Source: a virus
Length of the DNA stretch: 64,000 nt
IMG/VR virus record: IMGVR_UViG_3300021399_000007
Coordinates: 5,874-69,873 of that record
Direction: 5' to 3' (one strand)
The position numbers and the translations under genes are program-made. Of this stretch, positions 5,723-64,000 are shown piece after piece. Under the pieces are notes generated by a model. It saw only the letters and a list, made by a program, of their open reading frames with translations, made no database searches and was not told the DNA's origin. Position 1 is the first letter of the stretch. Every line of letters starts with the position of its first letter.

Positions 5723-7660
5723 ATGACAATGCGTGGAATAATAGATATGCTTAATTATCATACTACATTATATGATAAAGGTAAAAGTGTATGGTCTGAT
5801 AAAGAATGGGATGAATTATATTTTAAACTTCAAAAATTAGAAAAAGAAACTGGTATTATTTATCCAGATTCACCAACTCAAAAAGTTTATTTTGAAAAAG
5901 TTTCTGAATTAAAAAAAGTTAAACATAATCATCCAATGTTGTCTCTTGATAAAACAAAAGATATAGAAGATATCAAATCTTTTATAAAAGGACATGATTG
6001 GGTGGCCATGGCAAAAATGGACGGATTAACTTGTTCATTACATTATGTTGATGGAAAACTGGTTTCCGCAGAGACAAGAGGAAATGGTATAGAAGGAGAA
6101 GATATTACTCATAATGCTTTAATAATTTCATCTATCCCTAATCAAATTAATTATAAAAAAGAATTAATTATTGATGGAGAAATTATTTGTACTTACAAAA
6201 ATTTTGAAAATTTTAACACTGAGTATAAAAATCCACGAAATTTTGCGAGTGGCAGTATTAGACTACTTGATTCAAAAGAATGTGTAAAAAGAAAATTAGA
6301 TTTCATTGCATGGGATGTAATCAAAGGGTTTAATAAAGAGACTTTGACAGAAAATCTTATTGAATTACGGCAGATTGGTTTTACAACAGTTCCATTAACA
6401 ATTAAAAATTTAATAACTCCAGATATTAATTCTGCAATAAATTTTTTAAAGGAACATTGTGAATTAAAGTCATATCCTATTGATGGGATTGTATTTAAAT
6501 ATGATAATGTTAAAGAGTATGAGGCGGCTGGCCGCACAGATCATCATTTTAAGGGCGGCTTAGCGTATAAGTTCTATGATGAAACTTATGAAACTCATTT
6601 AAAATATATCCAATGGACAATGGGAAGAACTGGTGTTCTTACTCCAGTAGCAGTATTTGATCCTATTGATATTGATGGTTCAATAGTAGAAAGAGCAAGT
6701 TTACATAATTTAAGTGTAATGGAAAATATTTTAGGTATTCCTTTTGAAAAACAAAAATTACAGGTTTTTAAAGCAAATATGATTGTTCCGCAAATTTATA
6801 GTGCAGAAAAACCAAAAGAAAAACCTAGTAGTCCTATTATTCCATTAATAGAAAAATGTCCTATTTGCGGTGAAGATGTAGAAATTATTAACAATAATGG
6901 TGTAAAAATTATTGTATGTACTAATCCCTCATGCCAGGGGAAATTTATTAATATACTTGAGCATTTTTGTGGGAAAAAGGGTCTTGATATTAAAGGATTA
7001 TCTAAAGCTACTTTTCAAAAGTTAATTGATTGGGGATGGCTTGAAAATCTTGAAGGAGTTTTTAATCTTAATCAATATAGAAATGAATGGATTAAAAAGC
7101 CTGGTTTTGGAATAACTTCTGTAGATAAAATCTTAAAATCAATAGAAGAGCATAGACATACAACACTTGATGCCTTTATATCTGCGATTGGTATCCCCCT
7201 TATAGGGCGGGCAGTAGCAAAAGATTTAATTAATTATTTTGAAACTTATGAAGATTTTCGTAATGCAATTGATGATGATAAATATGATTTTTCCATATTA
7301 GATAATTTTGGAGAAGAAATGAATAAAAGTATTAAAAATTTTGATTATGCGGAAGCTGACAGAATTTCTAAACTTTTAATTTTTGAAACTCCTGTTGTTA
7401 ACAACGTTCAAATAAATAATAGTCTTACAGGAAAAACTATAGTTATTACGGGAAAACTTACTACATTTAAAAATAGAGCTGAATTAAAAGCTGTTATTGA
7501 ATCTCATGGTGGAAAGGTATCAGATTCTATTTCTGGCAAGACTGATTTATTAATTAACAATGATGTAAATAGCACATCATCTAAAAACAAAGCTGCGAAG
7601 GCACGCAATATACCTATTGTTTCAGAACTAGATTTTATAAAGCAATATATTGAAAACTAA
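5723..7660 (+). CDS. ligA: NAD+-dependent DNA ligase (LigA-type)
   Basis: KMDGLT adenylation motif, a Cys4 zinc finger (CPICGE...CTNPSCQG), HhH region and a C-terminal BRCT-like domain. 645 aa. Confidence 0.85.
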   Translation: MTMRGIIDMLNYHTTLYDKGKSVWSDKEWDELYFKLQKLEKETGIIYPDSPTQKVYFEKVSELKKVKHNHPMLSLDKTKDIEDIKSFIKGHDWVAMAKMDGLTCSLHYVDGKLVSAETRGNGIEGEDITHNALIISSIPNQINYKKELIIDGEIICTYKNFENFNTEYKNPRNFASGSIRLLDSKECVKRKLDFIAWDVIKGFNKETLTENLIELRQIGFTTVPLTIKNLITPDINSAINFLKEHCELKSYPIDGIVFKYDNVKEYEAAGRTDHHFKGGLAYKFYDETYETHLKYIQWTMGRTGVLTPVAVFDPIDIDGSIVERASLHNLSVMENILGIPFEKQKLQVFKANMIVPQIYSAEKPKEKPSSPIIPLIEKCPICGEDVEIINNNGVKIIVCTNPSCQGKFINILEHFCGKKGLDIKGLSKATFQKLIDWGWLENLEGVFNLNQYRNEWIKKPGFGITSVDKILKSIEEHRHTTLDAFISAIGIPLIGRAVAKDLINYFETYEDFRNAIDDDKYDFSILDNFGEEMNKSIKNFDYAEADRISKLLIFETPVVNNVQINNSLTGKTIVITGKLTTFKNRAELKAVIESHGGKVSDSISGKTDLLINNDVNSTSSKNKAAKARNIPIVSELDFIKQYIEN

Positions 7661-58869: not shown

Positions 58870-59170
58870 GTCCCCACTAACTTTGCCCGGGCGGCCCGTC
58901 GATTTATACAAAAGGATCCATATTTTCAATTTGATTTTTGTGCAACATTACGTCTTTACAAATCAAGAAACCTTTGCTATAATCTAGTTACAAGGTGAGG
59001 GAAACAAAAAGCCCTCAAAACTCAAAAGGGTTAGACAACAAGGCGCGCTGAGTCTAGCTTTTGGATTGAAAGGAGACAAGCAAAATGAGAATGCCGAGAG
59101 ATTGGATTTAATCCCTTTGGCTGAGTAGGAATGCCACTGTATGATTTGTAAAAAATAAAAATAAAAAACC

Positions 59171-59400
59171 TCTTGACAAATAGGGCGACTTGTGGTATAA
59201 TCTAATCACAGGTTAAGAAAGGAGATAGATAAGCCCATGATGAAAATTAAGAAATGAGCGCTTAGACTTGGGCATGGAGCGCTATGACATAAATTAAAAG
59301 GACTTGTCCATGGTAGCGGTGGATTGGCCACCCACCGAACTACCGAAACTTAAAAAAATTTTTTTAAAAAAAGCTTGACAACTGAATAAGGAACTGATAT
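59171..59400 (+). repeat. Leader module copy A (promoter, mini-ORF MMKIKK, two conserved hairpins, second promoter) upstream of wHTH paralogue 59444
   Basis: Homologous to 62491..62760. Conserved segments are AGCGCTATGACATAAA and GGTGGATTGGCCACCCACCG. Hairpin 1 shows compensatory changes (GCGCT/AGCGC versus GCGTT/AACGC). Confidence 0.5.
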
Positions 59401-59443
59401 AATAAAATCATCAAAAAGATAAACAAATCATTTAAAAAAGGAG

Positions 59444-59824
59444 ATGTATACTATGACAAAACTTACCTACGCTATGGCTATCGACTTCGCAACCGCAATC
59501 ATCACCAATGGAACTGCTGATTTCAACGGCTTCTCCGCTGATGAGTACCTTGAGAAGCTGGAGTCCCTCAAGGCTTCCCTTGCAAGACGCAACGGAAGTG
59601 AGAGAAAACCCACCAAGACCCAGCAGGCAAATGAGGGTCTGAAAGAAGATATGTGGGCTTACGTTTCTGAGAATGGTGCAAAGCGTGCCAATGAGGTCGC
59701 TGAACACTTCGCTATCAGCGGTCAGAAGGCTTCGGCTCTGCTGAACGCACTGGTCAAGGAAGGTCGCCTTGACAAGTTCACCGAGAAGCGTGTGACCTAC
59801 TTCAGGGTTGCTGAGGGGATGTAA
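59444..59824 (+). CDS. KPTKTQ-motif winged-helix-like small protein, paralogue A
   Basis: Shares the KPTKTQ..N(D/E)G(F/L)K motif and a C-terminal wHTH-like segment with 62777 and 63774. Promoter CTTGACAACTGAATAAGGAACTGATATAAT. Confidence 0.5.
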   Translation: MYTMTKLTYAMAIDFATAIITNGTADFNGFSADEYLEKLESLKASLARRNGSERKPTKTQQANEGLKEDMWAYVSENGAKRANEVAEHFAISGQKASALLNALVKEGRLDKFTEKRVTYFRVAEGM

Positions 59825-59995
59825 TCCCCTCACCGCTACCCCCAAGCGTGCCGAATCGTGATTGAAATAAATCCGTAGATTGAGGACGCTTGGGGGCGCG
59901 CCCGGGTACTCGTTAAAAAAATAACTTTCAAAAAGGGATTGACATCTCAATAGAAAAGGATTATAATGTAATCACAAAAAGAAAGGAGACAAAAA

Positions 59996-60199
59996 ATGAT
60001 TGCAGTTTTAAGATGGACAGATGGTTTTGGCCATGACACTTATGTAAAGGCAATTTATCCTACTCTTGAACAAGCAAAACAGTATTTTTCAGAGGGGGAC
60101 CGTTGGGTAGAATTTAATTATGGACTTGTTGATTTTGATTGGTATGAAGCCAATGAGTTCAGAGAAATAAAACATAGAAAAAAGAAGAAAAAGACTTGA
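59996..60199 (+). CDS. hypothetical small protein
   Basis: Promoter ATTGACATCTCAATAGAAAAGGATTATAAT. RBS AAAGGAG. Confidence 0.4.
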   Translation: MIAVLRWTDGFGHDTYVKAIYPTLEQAKQYFSEGDRWVEFNYGLVDFDWYEANEFREIKHRKKKKKT

Positions 60200-60253
60200 C
60201 AAATCTTTTAAAGTATGTCATAATCAAATCATCAAAAAAAAGAGGTAAACACC

Positions 60254-60553
60254 ATGAAGATTAATTACAAAGAAGTCACCATTACCACCACTTGCCCCTT
60301 CTGCGGACATATTAACGAAGTAGCGGTCAACAAATCCGATTACTGGGAGTGGCAGAACGGCGCACTTGTTCAGGATGCGTTCCCCTATCTCACAGCTGAT
60401 GAGCGTGAGACACTTGTGAGTGGCATCTGCCCCGCTTGTTGGGACAGAATGTTCAGCTTTCCCAATGATGAGGAAGATGATGAACTTTTTGACGACTGCG
60501 ATTATGAAATGGGTTTTGATCCCTATCTTGGGTGTTTTTCAGATGACTGCTGA
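60254..60553 (+). CDS. small Zn-ribbon protein
   Basis: CPFCGH...CPACW. Promoter CTTGACAAATCTTTTAAAGTATGTCATAAT. Confidence 0.45.
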   Translation: MKINYKEVTITTTCPFCGHINEVAVNKSDYWEWQNGALVQDAFPYLTADERETLVSGICPACWDRMFSFPNDEEDDELFDDCDYEMGFDPYLGCFSDDC

Positions 60554-60874
60554 GGTCATCTGACCCACCCGGGCGCCCGTTAACAATTCTGTAACAAAAT
60601 TAATAAATTGTTAAATTGACAAAATAAAAAAGATTTATTATAATTGTTACAGAAAGAGAGGTAAAAAGCTATGAAGAACACTTGGAAAATGGAAACATCT
60701 AAGGATTTTACCGCATGGGATTTAAATTGCCGAAATGTAGTCCCCCACAAAAAGCATCACAATGAACTTGAAAAAAAATTAAAAAGAAAAAATCGTAGAA
60801 AAGTAAAAATGACGCTTGACATTCTTTTTAAGTGATGCTATAATACAATTACAAAAAGAAAGGGGAATAAAAAA

Positions 60875-61312
60875 ATGACGATTTGGTTTGACATGGATGG
60901 AACAATTGCTAATCTCTACGGAGTTCAAAACTGGCTTGACTATCTGATGGCAAGCGACCCCACCCCTTACGCAATCGCTAAACCGCTTCTGAGACTGAAC
61001 GCACTGGCAAGAGTTCTAAATAATCTTCAGCGCAAGGGTTACAAAGTCGGAGTCATCAGCTGGCTTGCTAAAAACAGCACCGCCGACTATGACGAAGCGG
61101 TCACCAAAGCAAAGATTGATTGGTTGACTAAACATCTTGCAAGCGTTACTTTCGATGAAATCAACATCGTAAGATACGGAACTCCAAAACATCTGTTCGC
61201 TACCTGCGAAGCCGACATTCTTTTCGATGATGAGGAAAAGAACCGCAACGAATGGACAGGAAAAGCGTTCGATGTGAATAACATTCTTGAAGTGCTGAAG
61301 GGACTGGATTAA
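60875..61312 (+). CDS. HAD-superfamily phosphatase, paralogue 2 (GC-richer codon usage than paralogue 1)
   Basis: WFDMDGTIAN and DILFDDEE motifs. Collinear with 53990..54430 at the protein level. Terminator GGACTGGATTAATCCAGTCC. Confidence 0.6.
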   Translation: MTIWFDMDGTIANLYGVQNWLDYLMASDPTPYAIAKPLLRLNALARVLNNLQRKGYKVGVISWLAKNSTADYDEAVTKAKIDWLTKHLASVTFDEINIVRYGTPKHLFATCEADILFDDEEKNRNEWTGKAFDVNNILEVLKGLD

Positions 61313-61419
61313 TCCAGTCCCAAATTTTTTGGCCCGGGCGCCCATTTTTTTCATTAAACCCCTTGACAAATCAAAGAATATCAATTATAATTGATTTATC
61401 AAAAGAAAGGAGCAAAAAA

Positions 61420-61791
61420 ATGAAAACTGCAAAATTATCTCTTTTAATATTATTTTTCCTCTTTGCTATTGTTATTATTTCATCCTCTGCGACTGCCGCC
61501 AAAAACGATTTAAAAATCATTAAAACTCTTTGCAAAAATAGACCATTTAAAGTGGTTTCCCACAAAGACTACAAAAAAATAACTCACAGGAAAAACAAAC
61601 CTTACATAATAGTTGTAAAAATCATTTCCCGCTCAAAAGGAAACTATGGTTTTACAAAAGAAGGATATTACATTTCCTATAACAAAAGAGTCAAAGTAGG
61701 AAAAAAGGTTACTAGTTACCTTATTTATAATCCAAAAAACAATAGTCATGATGATGTGCTATGGGTTGTAGATAATGGGAAATATAAATAA
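61420..61791 (+). CDS. small secreted protein (signal peptide)
   Basis: MKTAKLSLLILFFLFAIVIISSSATAA. RBS AAAGGAG. The track start at 61363 lies within the promoter CTTGACAAATCAAAGAATATCAATTATAAT. Confidence 0.45.
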   Translation: MKTAKLSLLILFFLFAIVIISSSATAAKNDLKIIKTLCKNRPFKVVSHKDYKKITHRKNKPYIIVVKIISRSKGNYGFTKEGYYISYNKRVKVGKKVTSYLIYNPKNNSHDDVLWVVDNGKYK

Positions 61792-61846
61792 AAAACATGT
61801 TGACTTTTTTCTTAATCAATGATATAATCTAATCAAGAAAGGAGAG

Positions 61847-62188
61847 ATGAACATGACAAACAAAGATAAACTGATTGAAAAAATCATGAGAGAATGTGAA
61901 CAGGAAGGCGAGCCTGTTACAAGAGAAGAAGCTGAAGAAATGGCGGAGATGGAAATCAAAGCCAATGGCATCAAGCGGTATGAACAGTCCGATAAACCGC
62001 GGAAGGCCACCAAAAAAGAGCGGAAGGTGGATACCACAAAGAAACGCCTGCTGATGGATTGCAAGGTGCTTCTTGAAGGTCTTGGCGCTGAGGTTCTCAA
62101 TGTGAAAACTGAGACCGAAGTCACTTTCAACTTTGAGGGCGAAGAGTATAGCCTGAAACTGGTCAAGCATCGCCCCAAGAAGGAATAA
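61847..62188 (+). CDS. hypothetical basic/acidic small protein
   Basis: Promoter GTTGACTTTTTTTCTTAATCAATGATATAAT. RBS AAGGAGAG. Terminator GGCAGAGGATTTTTCCTCTGTC. Confidence 0.45.
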   Translation: MNMTNKDKLIEKIMRECEQEGEPVTREEAEEMAEMEIKANGIKRYEQSDKPRKATKKERKVDTTKKRLLMDCKVLLEGLGAEVLNVKTETEVTFNFEGEEYSLKLVKHRPKKE

Positions 62189-62490
62189 AAACAAGGCAGA
62201 GGATTTTTCCTCTGTCTTTTCCAGCGGGGCGCGAGCCTTCGGTTCGCGCCGAAATTTCCATTGTACCACACCCCGCACTTTTTGTCAAGCAAAATCTGCA
62301 AAAAAACTACACAAAATTATATCCCAAAATTAGTGCAACATTCCGATGTTGACTTTCTAAAAAACTTATATTATAATATGTTTACAAGGTAAGGGAAGGG
62401 CAACACAATCGAGTAGGATGGTCGGCAGAGCCTAGCGCCTTCTGATTATTTGAATAGACAGATAGCCACTTCAAAAAAAATAAAAAAACT

Positions 62491-62760
62491 TGTTGACAAA
62501 TAAAAAATCTTATGTTATAATAAGTACATAAGATAAAGAAAGGATTGATACAGCTGATGAGACTTAGGATGTAAGCGTTGGGGCGCAAACGCTATGACAT
62601 AAAAGAGGCGCAGGGGTAGATACGCGGACGCGGACAGAGTGAGAAAGGCGGTGGAATTGGCCACCCACCGCTCCCCGAAAAGTTTTTAAAAAAAGCTTGA
62701 CAACTAAATGAGGAACTGTTATAATAAGCACATAAGAAAACAAAACACCACTTAATCAAG
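62491..62760 (+). repeat. Leader module copy B (promoter, mini-ORF MRLRM, two hairpins, second promoter) upstream of paralogue 62777
   Basis: See copy A at 59171..59400. P-b TTGACAAATAAAAAATCTTATGTTATAAT. P-c CTTGACAACTAAATGAGGAACTGTTATAAT. Confidence 0.5.
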
Positions 62761-62776
62761 AAAGGAAGTATCTACC

Positions 62777-63136
62777 ATGACGAAGAGAGAAATGTTCACC
62801 AAAATCCGCACTGCTGTTGCTAACGATGCTGAGATGGTCGCCTTCATTGACCACGAAATCGAGTTGCTGAACCGCAAGTCCGCAACCCCGAAGAAACCCA
62901 CCAAGACGCAGGTGGAAAACGATGGTTTCAAGGCTGAAATCCTTGAAACGTTGGCTCAGGTCGATGCGCCTGTGACCATCAAGGAACTGTGCGGTGCCTG
63001 TGAAGCTCTCGCAGGTCTTTCCAATCAGCGTGTGACTCACATGCTGACTGACCTCCGCAAGGATGGCAAGGTTGCTCGGTCCTATGTTAAGAAGGTTGCC
63101 TACTTCGCTCTTGGTTCTGAGGACGAGGTAGAGTAA
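62777..63136 (+). CDS. KPTKTQ-motif winged-helix-like small protein, paralogue B
   Basis: MTKREMFTKIRTAVANDAEMVAFIDHEIELL...KPTKTQVENDGFKAEI is near-identical in its N-terminal half to 63774. Confidence 0.5.
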   Translation: MTKREMFTKIRTAVANDAEMVAFIDHEIELLNRKSATPKKPTKTQVENDGFKAEILETLAQVDAPVTIKELCGACEALAGLSNQRVTHMLTDLRKDGKVARSYVKKVAYFALGSEDEVE

Positions 63137-63773
63137 GAAAAAGGGTTTGCGGTTATCCCTTAAAACCGCATTTTATGGGGGATTTATAGTGAAGCCTGAG
63201 GTGACAAGTAGTTGCGTAATAGCCCTTGTGTAATTCCTGGGAAGATGTGGTGCAAGTCCCATTCCCCCAACTCTACTGACAATATTCGTTCCTCCTTTCT
63301 TTGAAAAGACACCATCTTTTTAGATGGTGTCTTTTTCATTTGGCGCCACGCGACCGGTCGGCCGCGGGGCGAAACTTCCATTATATCATACTCTGGGCTT
63401 TTTGTCAAGTGAAAATCTGCACAAACATCTCGCCGCAAAATTCCCAAAATTAGTGCAATATTCCGACATTGACTTTTTCAAAAAAATTTATTATAATATA
63501 TTTACAAGGTAAGGGAAGTCAACCGCTAAAAAAACTTAAAAAGTTAAAAAAAGTTCTTGACAAAACAAAAGCCTTGTGCTATAATAATCTTGTTGGGTGG
63601 TAGAAGCAACATAAAATAAAAGATACCCGTGGAGTTGATGGTACGATAGTCTCCGAAAAAAAACCATCAAAAAATTAAAAAATCTATTGACAAATCAAAA
63701 ATCTTATGTTAAAATAAGTACATAAGATAAAACAAAAACAAATCAATCAATCAAAAGAAAGAGGTGTTTATTA

Positions 63774-64000
63774 TGACAAAGAAAGAAATGTTCTCCAAAA
63801 TCCGTACTGCTGTTGCTGATAACGCTGAAATGGTTGCTTTCATCGACCATGAGATTGAACTGCTGGAGAAGAAGTCCAGTTCCCCGAAAAAGCCGACCAA
63901 GACTCAGCTTGAGAATGACGGCTTCAAGGCGGAGATTGTCGCCTACCTCACGGATGCTGATGCTCCGAAGAACATCAAGGAACTTCAGGCCGAGGTCGCT
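63774..64000 (+). CDS. KPTKTQ-motif protein, paralogue C (3' end outside the window)
   Basis: MTKKEMFSKIRTAVADNAEMVAFIDHEIELLEKKSSSPKKPTKTQLENDGFKAEI. Promoter ATTGACAAATCAAAAATCTTATGTTAAAAT. Confidence 0.45.

Follow-up and report, generated by a model that had tools for sequence, protein, structure and literature searches.

A conserved structured leader RNA with an in-frame mini-ORF upstream of small KPTKTQ-motif genes in uncultured phages

Background

Tandem early promoters with structured leaders are known from virulent phages, i.e. T7, with its promoters A1-A3 and RNase III sites, and SPO1/SP82, with their host-takeover region; the polypurine stabiliser originates from phage SP82, and the autoregulatory leader of T4 gene 32 is an H-type pseudoknot leader. 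Here, we analysed a 64,000-nt stretch of DNA (positions 5,874 to 69,873 of IMG/VR virus record IMGVR_UViG_3300021399_000007, hereafter the window), in which a leader RNA that we named M1 stands upstream of two of three paralogous genes encoding small proteins with a KPTKTQ motif (genes A, B and C).

Some bacterial leaders come close to this arrangement. Arg/Lys-X-Arg/Lys (+X+) arrests ribosomes when macrolides or ketolides are present, and leader peptides such as MTASMRLR, MTASMRLK and MTHSMRLR.. use it (peptides are written up to their stop codon unless dots follow); the stalled ribosomes also stabilise the mRNA (PMC8298421, PMC4335068). In Bacillus subtilis, 5' roadblocks, i.e. a stalled ribosome or a strong Shine-Dalgarno (SD) sequence without start codon, stabilise downstream RNA (PMC3997798).

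A first-pass annotation had proposed that the three genes form a winged-helix family, each preceded by a duplicated leader with several promoters, mini-open reading frames (mini-ORFs) and hairpins, possibly an attenuator or riboregulator. We compared the leaders with their homologues, and this comparison showed that M1 is real: a structured RNA, conserved among relatives, whose mini-ORF is likewise conserved and in frame. It represents a new motif among structured leaders, related as a variant to the known leader-peptide and pseudoknot leaders. The comparison also brought out four things absent from the first-pass annotation, namely a predicted pseudoknot, a conserved +hydrophobic+ core in the mini-ORF peptide, a palindromic hairpin loop and a second structured RNA (M0) downstream of the 'TTACAAGGTAAGGGAAG' transcript start.

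Results and discussion

M1 is a leader family tied to KPTKTQ genes

M1 spans positions 59202-59349 upstream of gene A (M1-A) and 62522-62679 upstream of gene B (M1-B); the features of the interval are collected in Table 1. Every sequence feature listed beforehand was recovered, no more than a few bases from the coordinates given for it. The homology of leaders A and B proposed beforehand was borne out by 169 identical positions (73.5 % of the shorter leader), an alignment score of 56.5 against -2.5 ± 5.5 for shuffled sequences and an nhmmer E-value of ~1e-29. Protein-guided retrieval from IMG/VR and from JGI and ENA metagenomes gave 187 related loci (designated L followed by a number), and a profile of the A/B leaders gave 38 distinct M1 copies. 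All of these except one (37/38) lie on the coding strand immediately upstream of a KPTKTQ gene of either type, in agreement with the proposed tie between the leader and small winged-helix genes. The sole copy away from such a gene (L192, 11308-11470, minus strand of the locus) is the direct 5' untranslated region (UTR) of an unrelated 145-aa ORF, with no promoter between them.

The idea that each paralogue is preceded by the duplicated leader held for A and B and failed for C, where three promoters are present and nhmmer --max at E<=100 found no homologue of the A/B leader; a reading of the copy C leader as a degenerate M1 was rejected on this empty search. The leader of unit C (63592-63672) has neither a mini-ORF nor detectable homology to M1. 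At 63635-63670, UUGAUGGU and ACCAUCAA form a helix of 8 bp, perfect and closing a loop of 20 nt, again without M1 homology and with no U-tract after it.

As the first-pass annotation had stated, the element could not be assigned to a known class: no Rfam family matches it in the window or in 11 relatives. Rfam 15 gave no gathering-level match on the window, and at E<=10 nothing on the M1 pseudoknot/junction core or on M0, a second structured RNA described below; the sole overlaps, both at chance level, were snoRNA DdR18 (59292-59383, E 9.1) and rne5 (minus strand, 62419-62527, E 8.7). In the 11 relatives at E<=0.5 there was nothing meaningful for M1 or M0, and the matches were tRNAs and one weak tmRNA-like match in the 3' slot discussed below. 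A pattern scan of genome contigs for the junction core returned one match, inside a coding region and judged to be chance; it identified no prophage or host. Two exact-pattern scans of IMG/VR gave mostly chance matches, nhmmer retaining only already-known loci and L192.

A mini-ORF conserved in frame and as a peptide

In all 37 leaders analysed, an SD sequence and an ATG stand in frame 0 relative to S1, the first helix of M1, as expected of a leader-peptide attenuator. The distance from ATG to S1 takes only multiples of three (12, 18, 21, 24, 30 or 33 nt) and the mini-ORF is 3-20 codons long. Its peptide core lies exactly two codons before hairpin 1, with R or K at position 1 in 33/37 leaders and at position 3 in 34/37, and L, Y, F, C, I, V or M in the middle in 37/37. 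The codons of this core vary synonymously (Arg as AGA, AGG or CGA, Leu as CTT or CTG, Tyr as TAT or TAC), which indicates that selection acts on the peptide of the putative mini-ORF and not only on the RNA. M1 cores match the arrest motif Arg/Lys-X-Arg/Lys, as a match of sequence. Within the window, the three mini-ORFs called earlier, i.e. MMKIKK and MRLRM, for which good ribosome-binding sites (RBS) had been noted, and MRMPRDWI, are all present, each with an SD sequence.

The M1 frame stops at the base of hairpin 1 in 20/37 leaders and otherwise within the S1 loop or the linker that follows, never past the linker. Programmed frameshifting or readthrough at the pseudoknot was considered and rejected, as there is no long ORF downstream and none of the ORFs extends past the linker.

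Hairpin 1 belongs to a predicted H-type pseudoknot

Hairpin 1 reads AGCGCUU/GAGCGCU in copy A and AGCGUU/AACGCU in copy B. The compensatory change reported between the copies is genuine, a true C-G to U-A replacement, and the stem, S1, covaries across the whole family (GCGC/GCGC, GGGU/GCCC, GCGGA/UCCGC, GCGUG/CACGC, GCGUU/AACGC and others). S1 is the first stem of a predicted H-type pseudoknot, in which the 3' part of its loop pairs just after the conserved linker AAUGACAUAAA to form the second stem, S2. The motif TATGACATAAA is located at 59283 and 62593. The stretch UAUGACAUAAA, described as invariant, is indeed the same in both window copies; family-wide it is not, and the linker follows the consensus (A/U)AUGACAUAAA with variants.

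The S2 pairing exists in at least 10 forms, e.g. CCAC/GUGG, GCAC/GUGC, CGGU/ACCG, GUGCC/GGCAC, CUGCC/GGCAG, GUCGC/GCGAU and GCCUA/UAGGC. Cognate S2 duplexes have a mean energy of -7.95 kcal/mol versus -4.45 for non-cognate ones (3.5 better), and none of 20000 permutations reached the observed value (0/20000). In a 12-sequence alignment (A6), 92.7 % of cells pair, compared with 79.5 % after shuffling and no more than 52 % after sliding the partners. In S2, both partners change in four of the five pairs, and 95 % of cells pair. The predicted H-type pseudoknot of M1 is thus backed by covariation, and the earlier proposal of a conserved RNA structure was upheld by the comparison with 37 further homologues from phage metagenomes.

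These structures also bear on the possibility that the mini-ORFs (the M1 ORF and, in relatives, the MRDPP ORF described below) are toxic minigenes like those of lambda bar, which would trap tRNAs as peptidyl-tRNA or occupy ribosomes during host takeover, the RNA structures being secondary. Very strong promoters and SDs serving only 5-7 codons would suit such a role, as would the early-region location and the MRDPP ORF, whose codons vary synonymously and whose tails differ among the 37 contexts that keep it. Many M1 ORFs, however, reach 13-20 codons, and the covarying structures directly downstream argue that the RNA itself is selected; we consider toxic minigenes very improbable.

The P3/hp2 domain and its palindromic loop

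The motif of the second hairpin noted earlier, GGTGGA(A)TTGGCCACCCACC, is present at 59318 and 62650, but this part of M1 is better drawn as a helix P3 with hairpin hp2 (A 59312-59344; B 62613-62676, a three-way junction). P3 encloses hp2 alone in copy A; the three-way junction is predicted in copy B and 11 relatives, with the conserved joiners UAGAUA and GACAGAGUGAGAAAG/GACAGAnUGAGAAAG. S2 abuts P3, whose fourth pair is seen as G-C, A-U and U-A, and the hp2 stems differ among members yet remain complementary.

A 6-nt palindrome is found in 20 of the 21 distinct large hp2 loops (>=7 nt), versus 2.1 expected. There are seven types (UGGCCA, CUGCAG, CCGCGG, GCGCGC, GUCGAC, GGUACC and GGCGCC), plus GUGCAC in L192. 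The palindrome sits off-centre, with 1-5 unpaired bases on its 5' side (mostly 1-4) and usually 0-1 on its 3' side, and is therefore not a stem extension. A self-complementary hexamer in an apical loop, kept through sequence change, is what a kissing loop would have, and hp2 may hold a dimer site. The hexamer is unique at most loci within the few kb sampled per locus; a second copy that could serve as a heterologous kissing partner was sought over the same distance and none was consistently placed.

The copy in L192 has the mini-ORF MRVKIKA, a pseudoknot with CCCAC/GUGGG, a three-way junction and the hp2 loop AAGUGCACA. A tRNA-like sequence follows its 145-aa ORF, on a contig with 7 tRNA genes.

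Self-complementary loops invite the reading that M1 (and M0) are stand-alone, dual-function small RNAs, which would act in trans, e.g. on a protein or RNA of the host or the phage, forming homodimers through the hp2 kissing loop, their place beside winged-helix genes reflecting co-inheritance of modules. Natural homo-oligomeric RNAs of bacterial and phage-associated origin exist (PMC12286853). All modules have a perfect promoter of their own and the next promoter comes right after them, M1 is optional for the gene family, and conserved junctions, a pseudoknot and a self-complementary loop like the dimerisation initiation site (DIS) of HIV-1 would all suit an autonomous RNA. We nevertheless hold this to be rather doubtful: no terminator defines a 3' end, position and orientation to the gene are strictly kept in 37/38 copies, M1 is plainly a 5' UTR in L192 and 11 members have no palindromic loop.

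The same palindromes could instead act as DNA, the inverted repeats being operators for the winged-helix proteins, or the promoter and A/T tract a replication origin. GC-rich palindromes within an AT-rich genome, a dimeric-looking winged helix-turn-helix (wHTH) protein encoded alongside and the A/T tracts after hp2 are in keeping with this. The helices, however, covary, G-U pairs included, interleaved pseudoknot pairing is meaningless in duplex DNA, and the palindrome differs between close relatives whose proteins are ~75-80 % identical, which leaves a DNA element barely credible.

M1 does not behave as a classical attenuator

In nearly all members, CGAAA comes after hp2, together with an A-rich tract that also serves as the upstream element of P2, the promoter preceding the gene. 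With no U-tract after hp2 there is no intrinsic terminator, and a terminator scan found none in the leaders. We found no conserved helix sequestering the RBS of the gene, from which M1 is separated by P2 and 60-90 nt. The second promoter motif reported in each leader is present, at 59374 and 62696, and its position between M1 and the gene means that it bypasses any control by M1. Given also that most upstream regions of the family, copy C among them, have no M1, the attenuator part of the earlier interpretation found no support, and a classical attenuator of the on/off type is not supported by the predicted features.

These points weigh equally on a drug-responsive attenuator of the erm/mef/msr type, in which a macrolide-bound ribosome would arrest at +X+, melt the pseudoknot and turn the gene on, allowing the phage to sense translation inhibitors. 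MRLRM, MRRFRI and MLTRLRI do resemble MTASMRLR, MTASMRLK and ErmDL, and the distance from motif to first helix is fixed. Besides the missing terminator and RBS-sequestering helix and the bypass through P2, however, the downstream gene encodes a winged-helix protein rather than a resistance determinant, and Cys and Tyr occur among the middle residues. We regard such a sensor as improbable.

A possible role in transcript stability or processing

The reading that we tentatively favour, at somewhat less than an even chance, is that M1 is a cis-acting, ribosome-gated 5' leader module of uncultured phages, which would tune the stability or processing of transcripts. It would be transcribed from its own consensus sigma-70-type promoter (P1), a strong RBS and the mini-ORF preceding the pseudoknot. 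Since no more than 0-9 nt separate S1 from the core motif and the stop codon, a ribosome translating, pausing or terminating on the mini-ORF would have to cover or melt S1 together with the 5' arm of S2, and translation would thereby gate the pseudoknot, ribosome traffic deciding whether it folds along with the downstream domain. Compact folds and a ribosome close to the 5' end could then act as roadblocks to 5'-to-3' decay, as in B. subtilis, and the folded state would set the stability or processing of transcripts from P1 (and from P0, the promoter upstream of it) that read through P2 into the winged-helix gene. Loop-loop dimerisation possibly contributes. M1 would be an accessory module, stacked with M0, MRDPP minigenes and SD-like 5' ends.

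Several observations weigh against this interpretation. A perfect P2 promoter separates M1 from the gene in 37/38 copies, so that much of the gene mRNA need not contain M1, and only 29 of the 135 distinct upstream regions of the gene family carry M1, which makes it an optional module. No conserved alternative pairing (anti-pseudoknot) or output helix was found in M1. We know of no ribosome arrest at +X+ without drug. The palindromic loop is replaced by a tetraloop in 11/36 members (GACG in 8, GCGC in 3). Folding energies of single sequences are unremarkable (z -0.2 to -1.7), and the evidence for structure is thus comparative. Finally, neither a pseudoknot nor conserved junctions nor a palindromic loop would be required for a simple roadblock.

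A further reading makes M1 a new kind of RNA device in phages, whose arrest-type mini-ORF would gate a pseudoknot/three-way-junction fold that self-associates through a DIS-like kissing loop. Such a device would read the state of the host ribosome (inhibitors, the status of elongation factor P (EF-P) or tRNA, or the phage's own shut-off) and set the stability, processing or dimerisation of early regulator transcripts, forming an RNA-centred control layer with M0, MRDPP, the antisense units and the 3' cassette described below. We judge this distinctly unlikely.

The structured parts might instead be mere processing or stability signals of an early region like those of T7 or SP82, with host RNase III, Y or J1 cutting long tandem-promoter transcripts at the stem-loops, SD-like 5' ends protecting the products and no sensing involved. 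About 20 consensus promoters in 8 kb and SD-like predicted 5' ends (AAGGUAAGGGAAG, AAGAUAAAGAAAGG) fit this view, and B. subtilis has 5' stabilisers, including the polypurine stabiliser (Hue et al. 1995, as cited in PMC3997798). It leaves unexplained the conserved peptide core, a mini-ORF fixed in frame and in spacing, and a pseudoknot with conserved linker, and the helices are shorter than classical RNase III substrates; we find it unlikely.

Returning to the ribosome-gated leader, if mini-ORF and pseudoknot are coupled, M1 would be the first pseudoknot gated by a leader peptide to be described, as far as we know, in the early region of a phage, and it would provide a bacterial-virus example of a DIS-like self-complementary loop. 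Whatever their function, several unannotated RNA families (M1, M0, the MRDPP minigene, the antisense GC-hairpin unit and the tRNA-like 3' cassette) all stem from a single, little-known group of uncultured phages of large size, and offer handles on how phages use ribosome-arrest peptides and RNA structure in host takeover.

The KPTKTQ proteins

The three winged-helix paralogues proposed for the window are present, FaeA, AF2 and Foldseek results being in agreement. The KPTKTQ codons lie at 59606 (A), 62894 (B) and 63890 (C), and identities amount to 76/113 between B and C, 36/119 between A and B and 41/113 between A and C. The proteins consist of an N-terminal helical hairpin, the conserved KPTKTQ linker and a C-terminal winged helix. 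Matches to Pfam FaeA (PF04703) scored 23.1 and 21.2 bits, above the cut-off of 20.7 but marginally so. The AF2 model (pLDDT 90) has a C-terminal domain of the H-H-H-strand-strand type; Foldseek listed ArsR/SmtB, HlyU, MarR and Zalpha wHTH matches (probability ~1, E ~1e-2). An ArsR/MarR-like wHTH fold is thus supported by modelling. No specific wHTH subfamily emerged: NCBIfam gave nothing, and apart from weak wHTH matches neither Pfam nor PHROGs supplied a name that was informative. Of the 1,701 database members of the protein family, none carries a name.

Genomic setting and promoters

The window is a low-GC (31 %) phage-like segment encoding a DNA polymerase, topoisomerase II, NAD-dependent ligase, DnaB-like helicase, NrdD and a portal protein. 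From ~56 kb to its end runs a series of small plus-strand genes, nearly every one with its own consensus TTGACA-17-TATAAT promoter and an A-rich upstream tract. Promoter-like sites number 52, versus 18.7 ± 5.0 expected, and 13 are perfect (12/12); the density in the early region is ~20 consensus promoters per 8 kb. Judging from promoter and SD types, the host looks Firmicutes-like.

At the DNA level, INPHARED (cultured phages) yielded a single 80-nt similarity, to large Enterococcus phages, where it falls in intergenic or hypothetical-protein stretches; on the window side it is the stretch of promoter P1_B. At the protein level, window genes were not found in any cultured phage in INPHARED, and one uncultured faecal phage matched. 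ARAGORN called no tRNA in the window.

By GC content, the early region looks like a mosaic: the KPTKTQ genes have 51-52 % GC (59453-59824, 62777-63136) and some neighbours 45-46 % (60254-60553, 60875-61312, 61853-62188), versus 31 % for the genome and 29-34 % for the interleaved small genes.

Promoter P2_C is of the same type as P1_B. A 9-bp inverted repeat (ATCTTATGT..ACATAAGAT) flanks the -10 hexamer of both P1_B (62493-62530) and P2_C (63687-63724); among the promoters of the family loci, 28 of 858 have an inverted repeat of 8 bp or more around the -10, versus 22 of 4290 in shuffles, and a possible function is that of an operator. The spacers of P2_A (59374-59403) and P2_B (62696-62725) share the direct repeat AACTG-N7-AACTG (CTTGACAACTRAATRAGGAACTGWTATAAT), which is also present in L009, L010 and L011 and not in other promoters, and may be a binding site for a regulator.

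Table 1 Predicted features of the interval around genes A, B and C (positions in the window)
Feature	Position	Strand	Remarks
P0_A promoter	58955..58983	+	TTTACA-17-TATAAT, TG-extended
P0_A predicted transcript start	~58990	+	SD-like AAGGUGAGGGAA and 5' hairpin GAGGG..CCCUC (58996-59017)
Mini-ORF MRMPRDWI	59085-59111	+	SD GAAAGGAGA 59069-59077; followed by hairpin UGGC..GCCA 59118-59136
P1_A promoter	59173..59201	+	Perfect TTGACA-17-TATAAT, A-rich UP-like tract 5' of it
M1-A mini-ORF MMKIKK	59237..59257	+	SD GGAG 59221-59224; K-I-K core ends two codons before S1; stop abuts S1
M1-A pseudoknot	59257..59310	+	S1 59257-59263 with 59277-59283; S2 UGGGCA (59269-59274) with UGUCCA (59305-59310)
M1-A linker L3	59284-59304	+	Contains AUGACAUAAA
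M1-A P3 and hp2	59312..59349	+	P3 GGUAG/CUACC; hp2 CGGUGG/CCACCG; GAAAC after
M1-A hp2 loop			9-nt AUUGGCCAC; palindrome UGGCCA 59325-59330
P2_A promoter	59375..59403	+	Perfect; spacer kept in P2_B and L009-L011
Gene A, A-type KPTKTQ winged-helix	59453..59824	+	123 aa from MTKLTY start; upstream ATG at 59444 also possible
P0_B promoter	62349..62377	+	TTGACT-17-TATAAT
M0 structured RNA	62384..62474	+	SD-like 5' end, outer GGC/GCC helix, 11-bp covarying hairpin, loop AGCCUAGCGC (AGCCWAGCGC)
P1_B promoter	62493..62521	+	Perfect; -10 within 9-bp inverted repeat ATCTTATGT/ACATAAGAT
M1-B mini-ORF MRLRM	62557..62574	+	R-L-R core ends two codons before S1
M1-B pseudoknot	62574..62611	+	S1 62574-62579 with 62588-62593; S2 GCGC (62583-62586) with GCGC (62608-62611)
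M1-B linker L3	62594-62607	+	
M1-B three-way junction	62613..62679	+	P3 GGGG (62613-62616) with CCCC (62673-62676); P4 62623-62632
M1-B hp2	62647-62672	+	Loop AAUUGGCCAC, palindrome 62658-62663; GAA after
P2_B promoter	62697..62725	+	Perfect
Gene B, B-type KPTKTQ winged-helix	62777..63136	+	119 aa
Unit C	63469..63715	+	P0_C 63469-63497; P1_C 63557-63585; P2_C 63687-63715
Gene C, B-type KPTKTQ paralogue	63773..64000	+	Cut by window end; full length 113 aa in L243

Other RNA modules of the early region

Transcript 5' ends predicted from the promoters are rich in strong SD-like sequences. The upstream transcripts described as beginning with TTACAAGGTRAGGGAA in all three units have this motif, at 58988, 62382 and 63502; the positions 58968 and 62376 given for it earlier were slightly off. 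The 'TTACAAGGTAAGGGAAG' transcript start leads into M0, which has its own promoter and 31 distinct homologues (e.g. L001:2612-2710, L019:2718-2815); 10 of its 22 predicted pairs show compensatory changes.

The counterpart of MRMPRDWI in L007 is MRKPRDWV, and the hairpin UGGC..GCCA that follows it in copy A also follows an MRDPP mini-ORF in L009 and L011. Relatives often insert the MRDPP mini-ORF where window copy A has MRMPRDWI. Driven by its own promoter, MRDPP.. was found in relatives only, in 37 distinct contexts (e.g. L009:2650-2667, L011:2632-2649, L013:2875-2916), with synonymous variation at the Arg, Asp and both Pro codons and tails of 0-21 residues. X-Pro-Pro is of the EF-P-dependent stalling type and a C-terminal Pro-Pro is a poor termination context; MRDPP looks like a conserved arrest or minigene module.

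Directly after gene B stands a conserved cassette (63140-63345). It contains a 30-nt interleaved, pseudoknot-like AAAGGGUUUGCGGUUAUCCCUUAAAACCGC, a degenerate tRNA-like element (63177-63269) with acceptor stem and T-arm, not called by ARAGORN, and a trailer with UUCCUCCUUUCUU resembling the 3' end of 16S rRNA (63289-63302); a bidirectional terminator (63308-63336) closes it. True tRNAs stand in or beside this 3' slot in relatives (Lys in L176, Asn in L132, and Rfam tRNA matches in L133, L143 and L129). The tRNA-like element of L015 (3403-3505) has a 7-bp acceptor stem and a T-arm with ~65 nt between them, and gave a sub-threshold Rfam tmRNA match (26.3 bits versus a gathering score of 47, E 8e-7). 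We rejected an ORF running through the tRNA-like element on the minus strand, since relatives do not keep its frame. The cassette could be an mRNA 3' end defined by RNase P or a trailer-derived anti-SD small RNA.

Perfect minus-strand promoters (62288..62260 and 63408..63380) diverge from P0 in units 62183-62288 and 63300-63408. Each would drive a ~70-nt RNA with a covarying GC-rich hairpin followed by the terminator hairpin of the upstream gene, of which relatives hold 76 distinct versions; this is a candidate antisense or small RNA unit. A GC-only motif, GCCCGGGC (often CCCGGGCGCCC, with overlapping palindromes), occurs seven times in 5 kb of this 31 %-GC genome (56279, 57300, 57900, 58885, 59900, 60568 and 61332), each time between a gene end and the next promoter; it may serve to bind a protein or be what is left of a GC-hairpin unit. 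An early region so dense in unannotated RNA elements calls for caution in reading M1 as a gene-specific regulator.

Comparison with known systems

With the early regions of T7, SPO1 and SP82, the locus shares stacked consensus host-type promoters before small genes and structured RNA between promoter and gene; the leaders have no sequence homology to those of these phages, for which, to our knowledge, mini-ORFs, a pseudoknot and a palindromic loop have not been described. Like the Bacillus 5' stabilisers (the ermC stalled ribosome, cryIIIA STAB-SD and the polypurine stabiliser), the phage leaders have SD-like runs (AAGGUAAGGGAAG) and 5' hairpins (GAGGG..CCCUC) ~10-30 nt from the predicted starts, and a mini-ORF with strong SD at the 5' end, to which they add, unlike these stabilisers, an elaborate, conserved, tertiary-looking structure.

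The hp2 loop resembles the HIV-1 DIS, in which a 6-nt GC-rich self-complementary sequence lies in an apical loop of 7-11 nt with unpaired A flanks and the hexamer varies but stays palindromic; GUGCAC, in the loop AAGUGCACA of L192, is one of the prevalent HIV-1 DIS palindromes (PMC5874298). It differs in that the phage genome is DNA, the hairpin lies in a predicted mRNA leader and not in packaged RNA, and 11/36 members have tetraloops. In its pseudoknot, M1 has the topology of preQ1-I riboswitches, i.e. the helix order a-b-a'-b', a short GC-rich S1, an A-rich third loop crossing S1 and a site in a 5' leader. Unlike preQ1-I, it has no Rfam preQ1 match even at E<=10, its linker AAUGACAUAAA differs, and it is fused to an upstream ORF and to P3/hp2.

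Compared with the erm(D)/erm(K) ErmDL, mef(E)L and msr(A)L attenuators, M1 has no terminator or RBS-sequestering hairpin, a pseudoknot in place of the 1:2/2:3/3:4 hairpins, and a promoter between itself and the gene, which encodes a phage winged-helix protein. It shares with them a short 5' ORF with strong SD, an MRLR-type core often beside the stop codon and a first helix within reach of a motif-bound ribosome, and in the erm/mef/msr systems the stalled ribosome can also stabilise the transcript.

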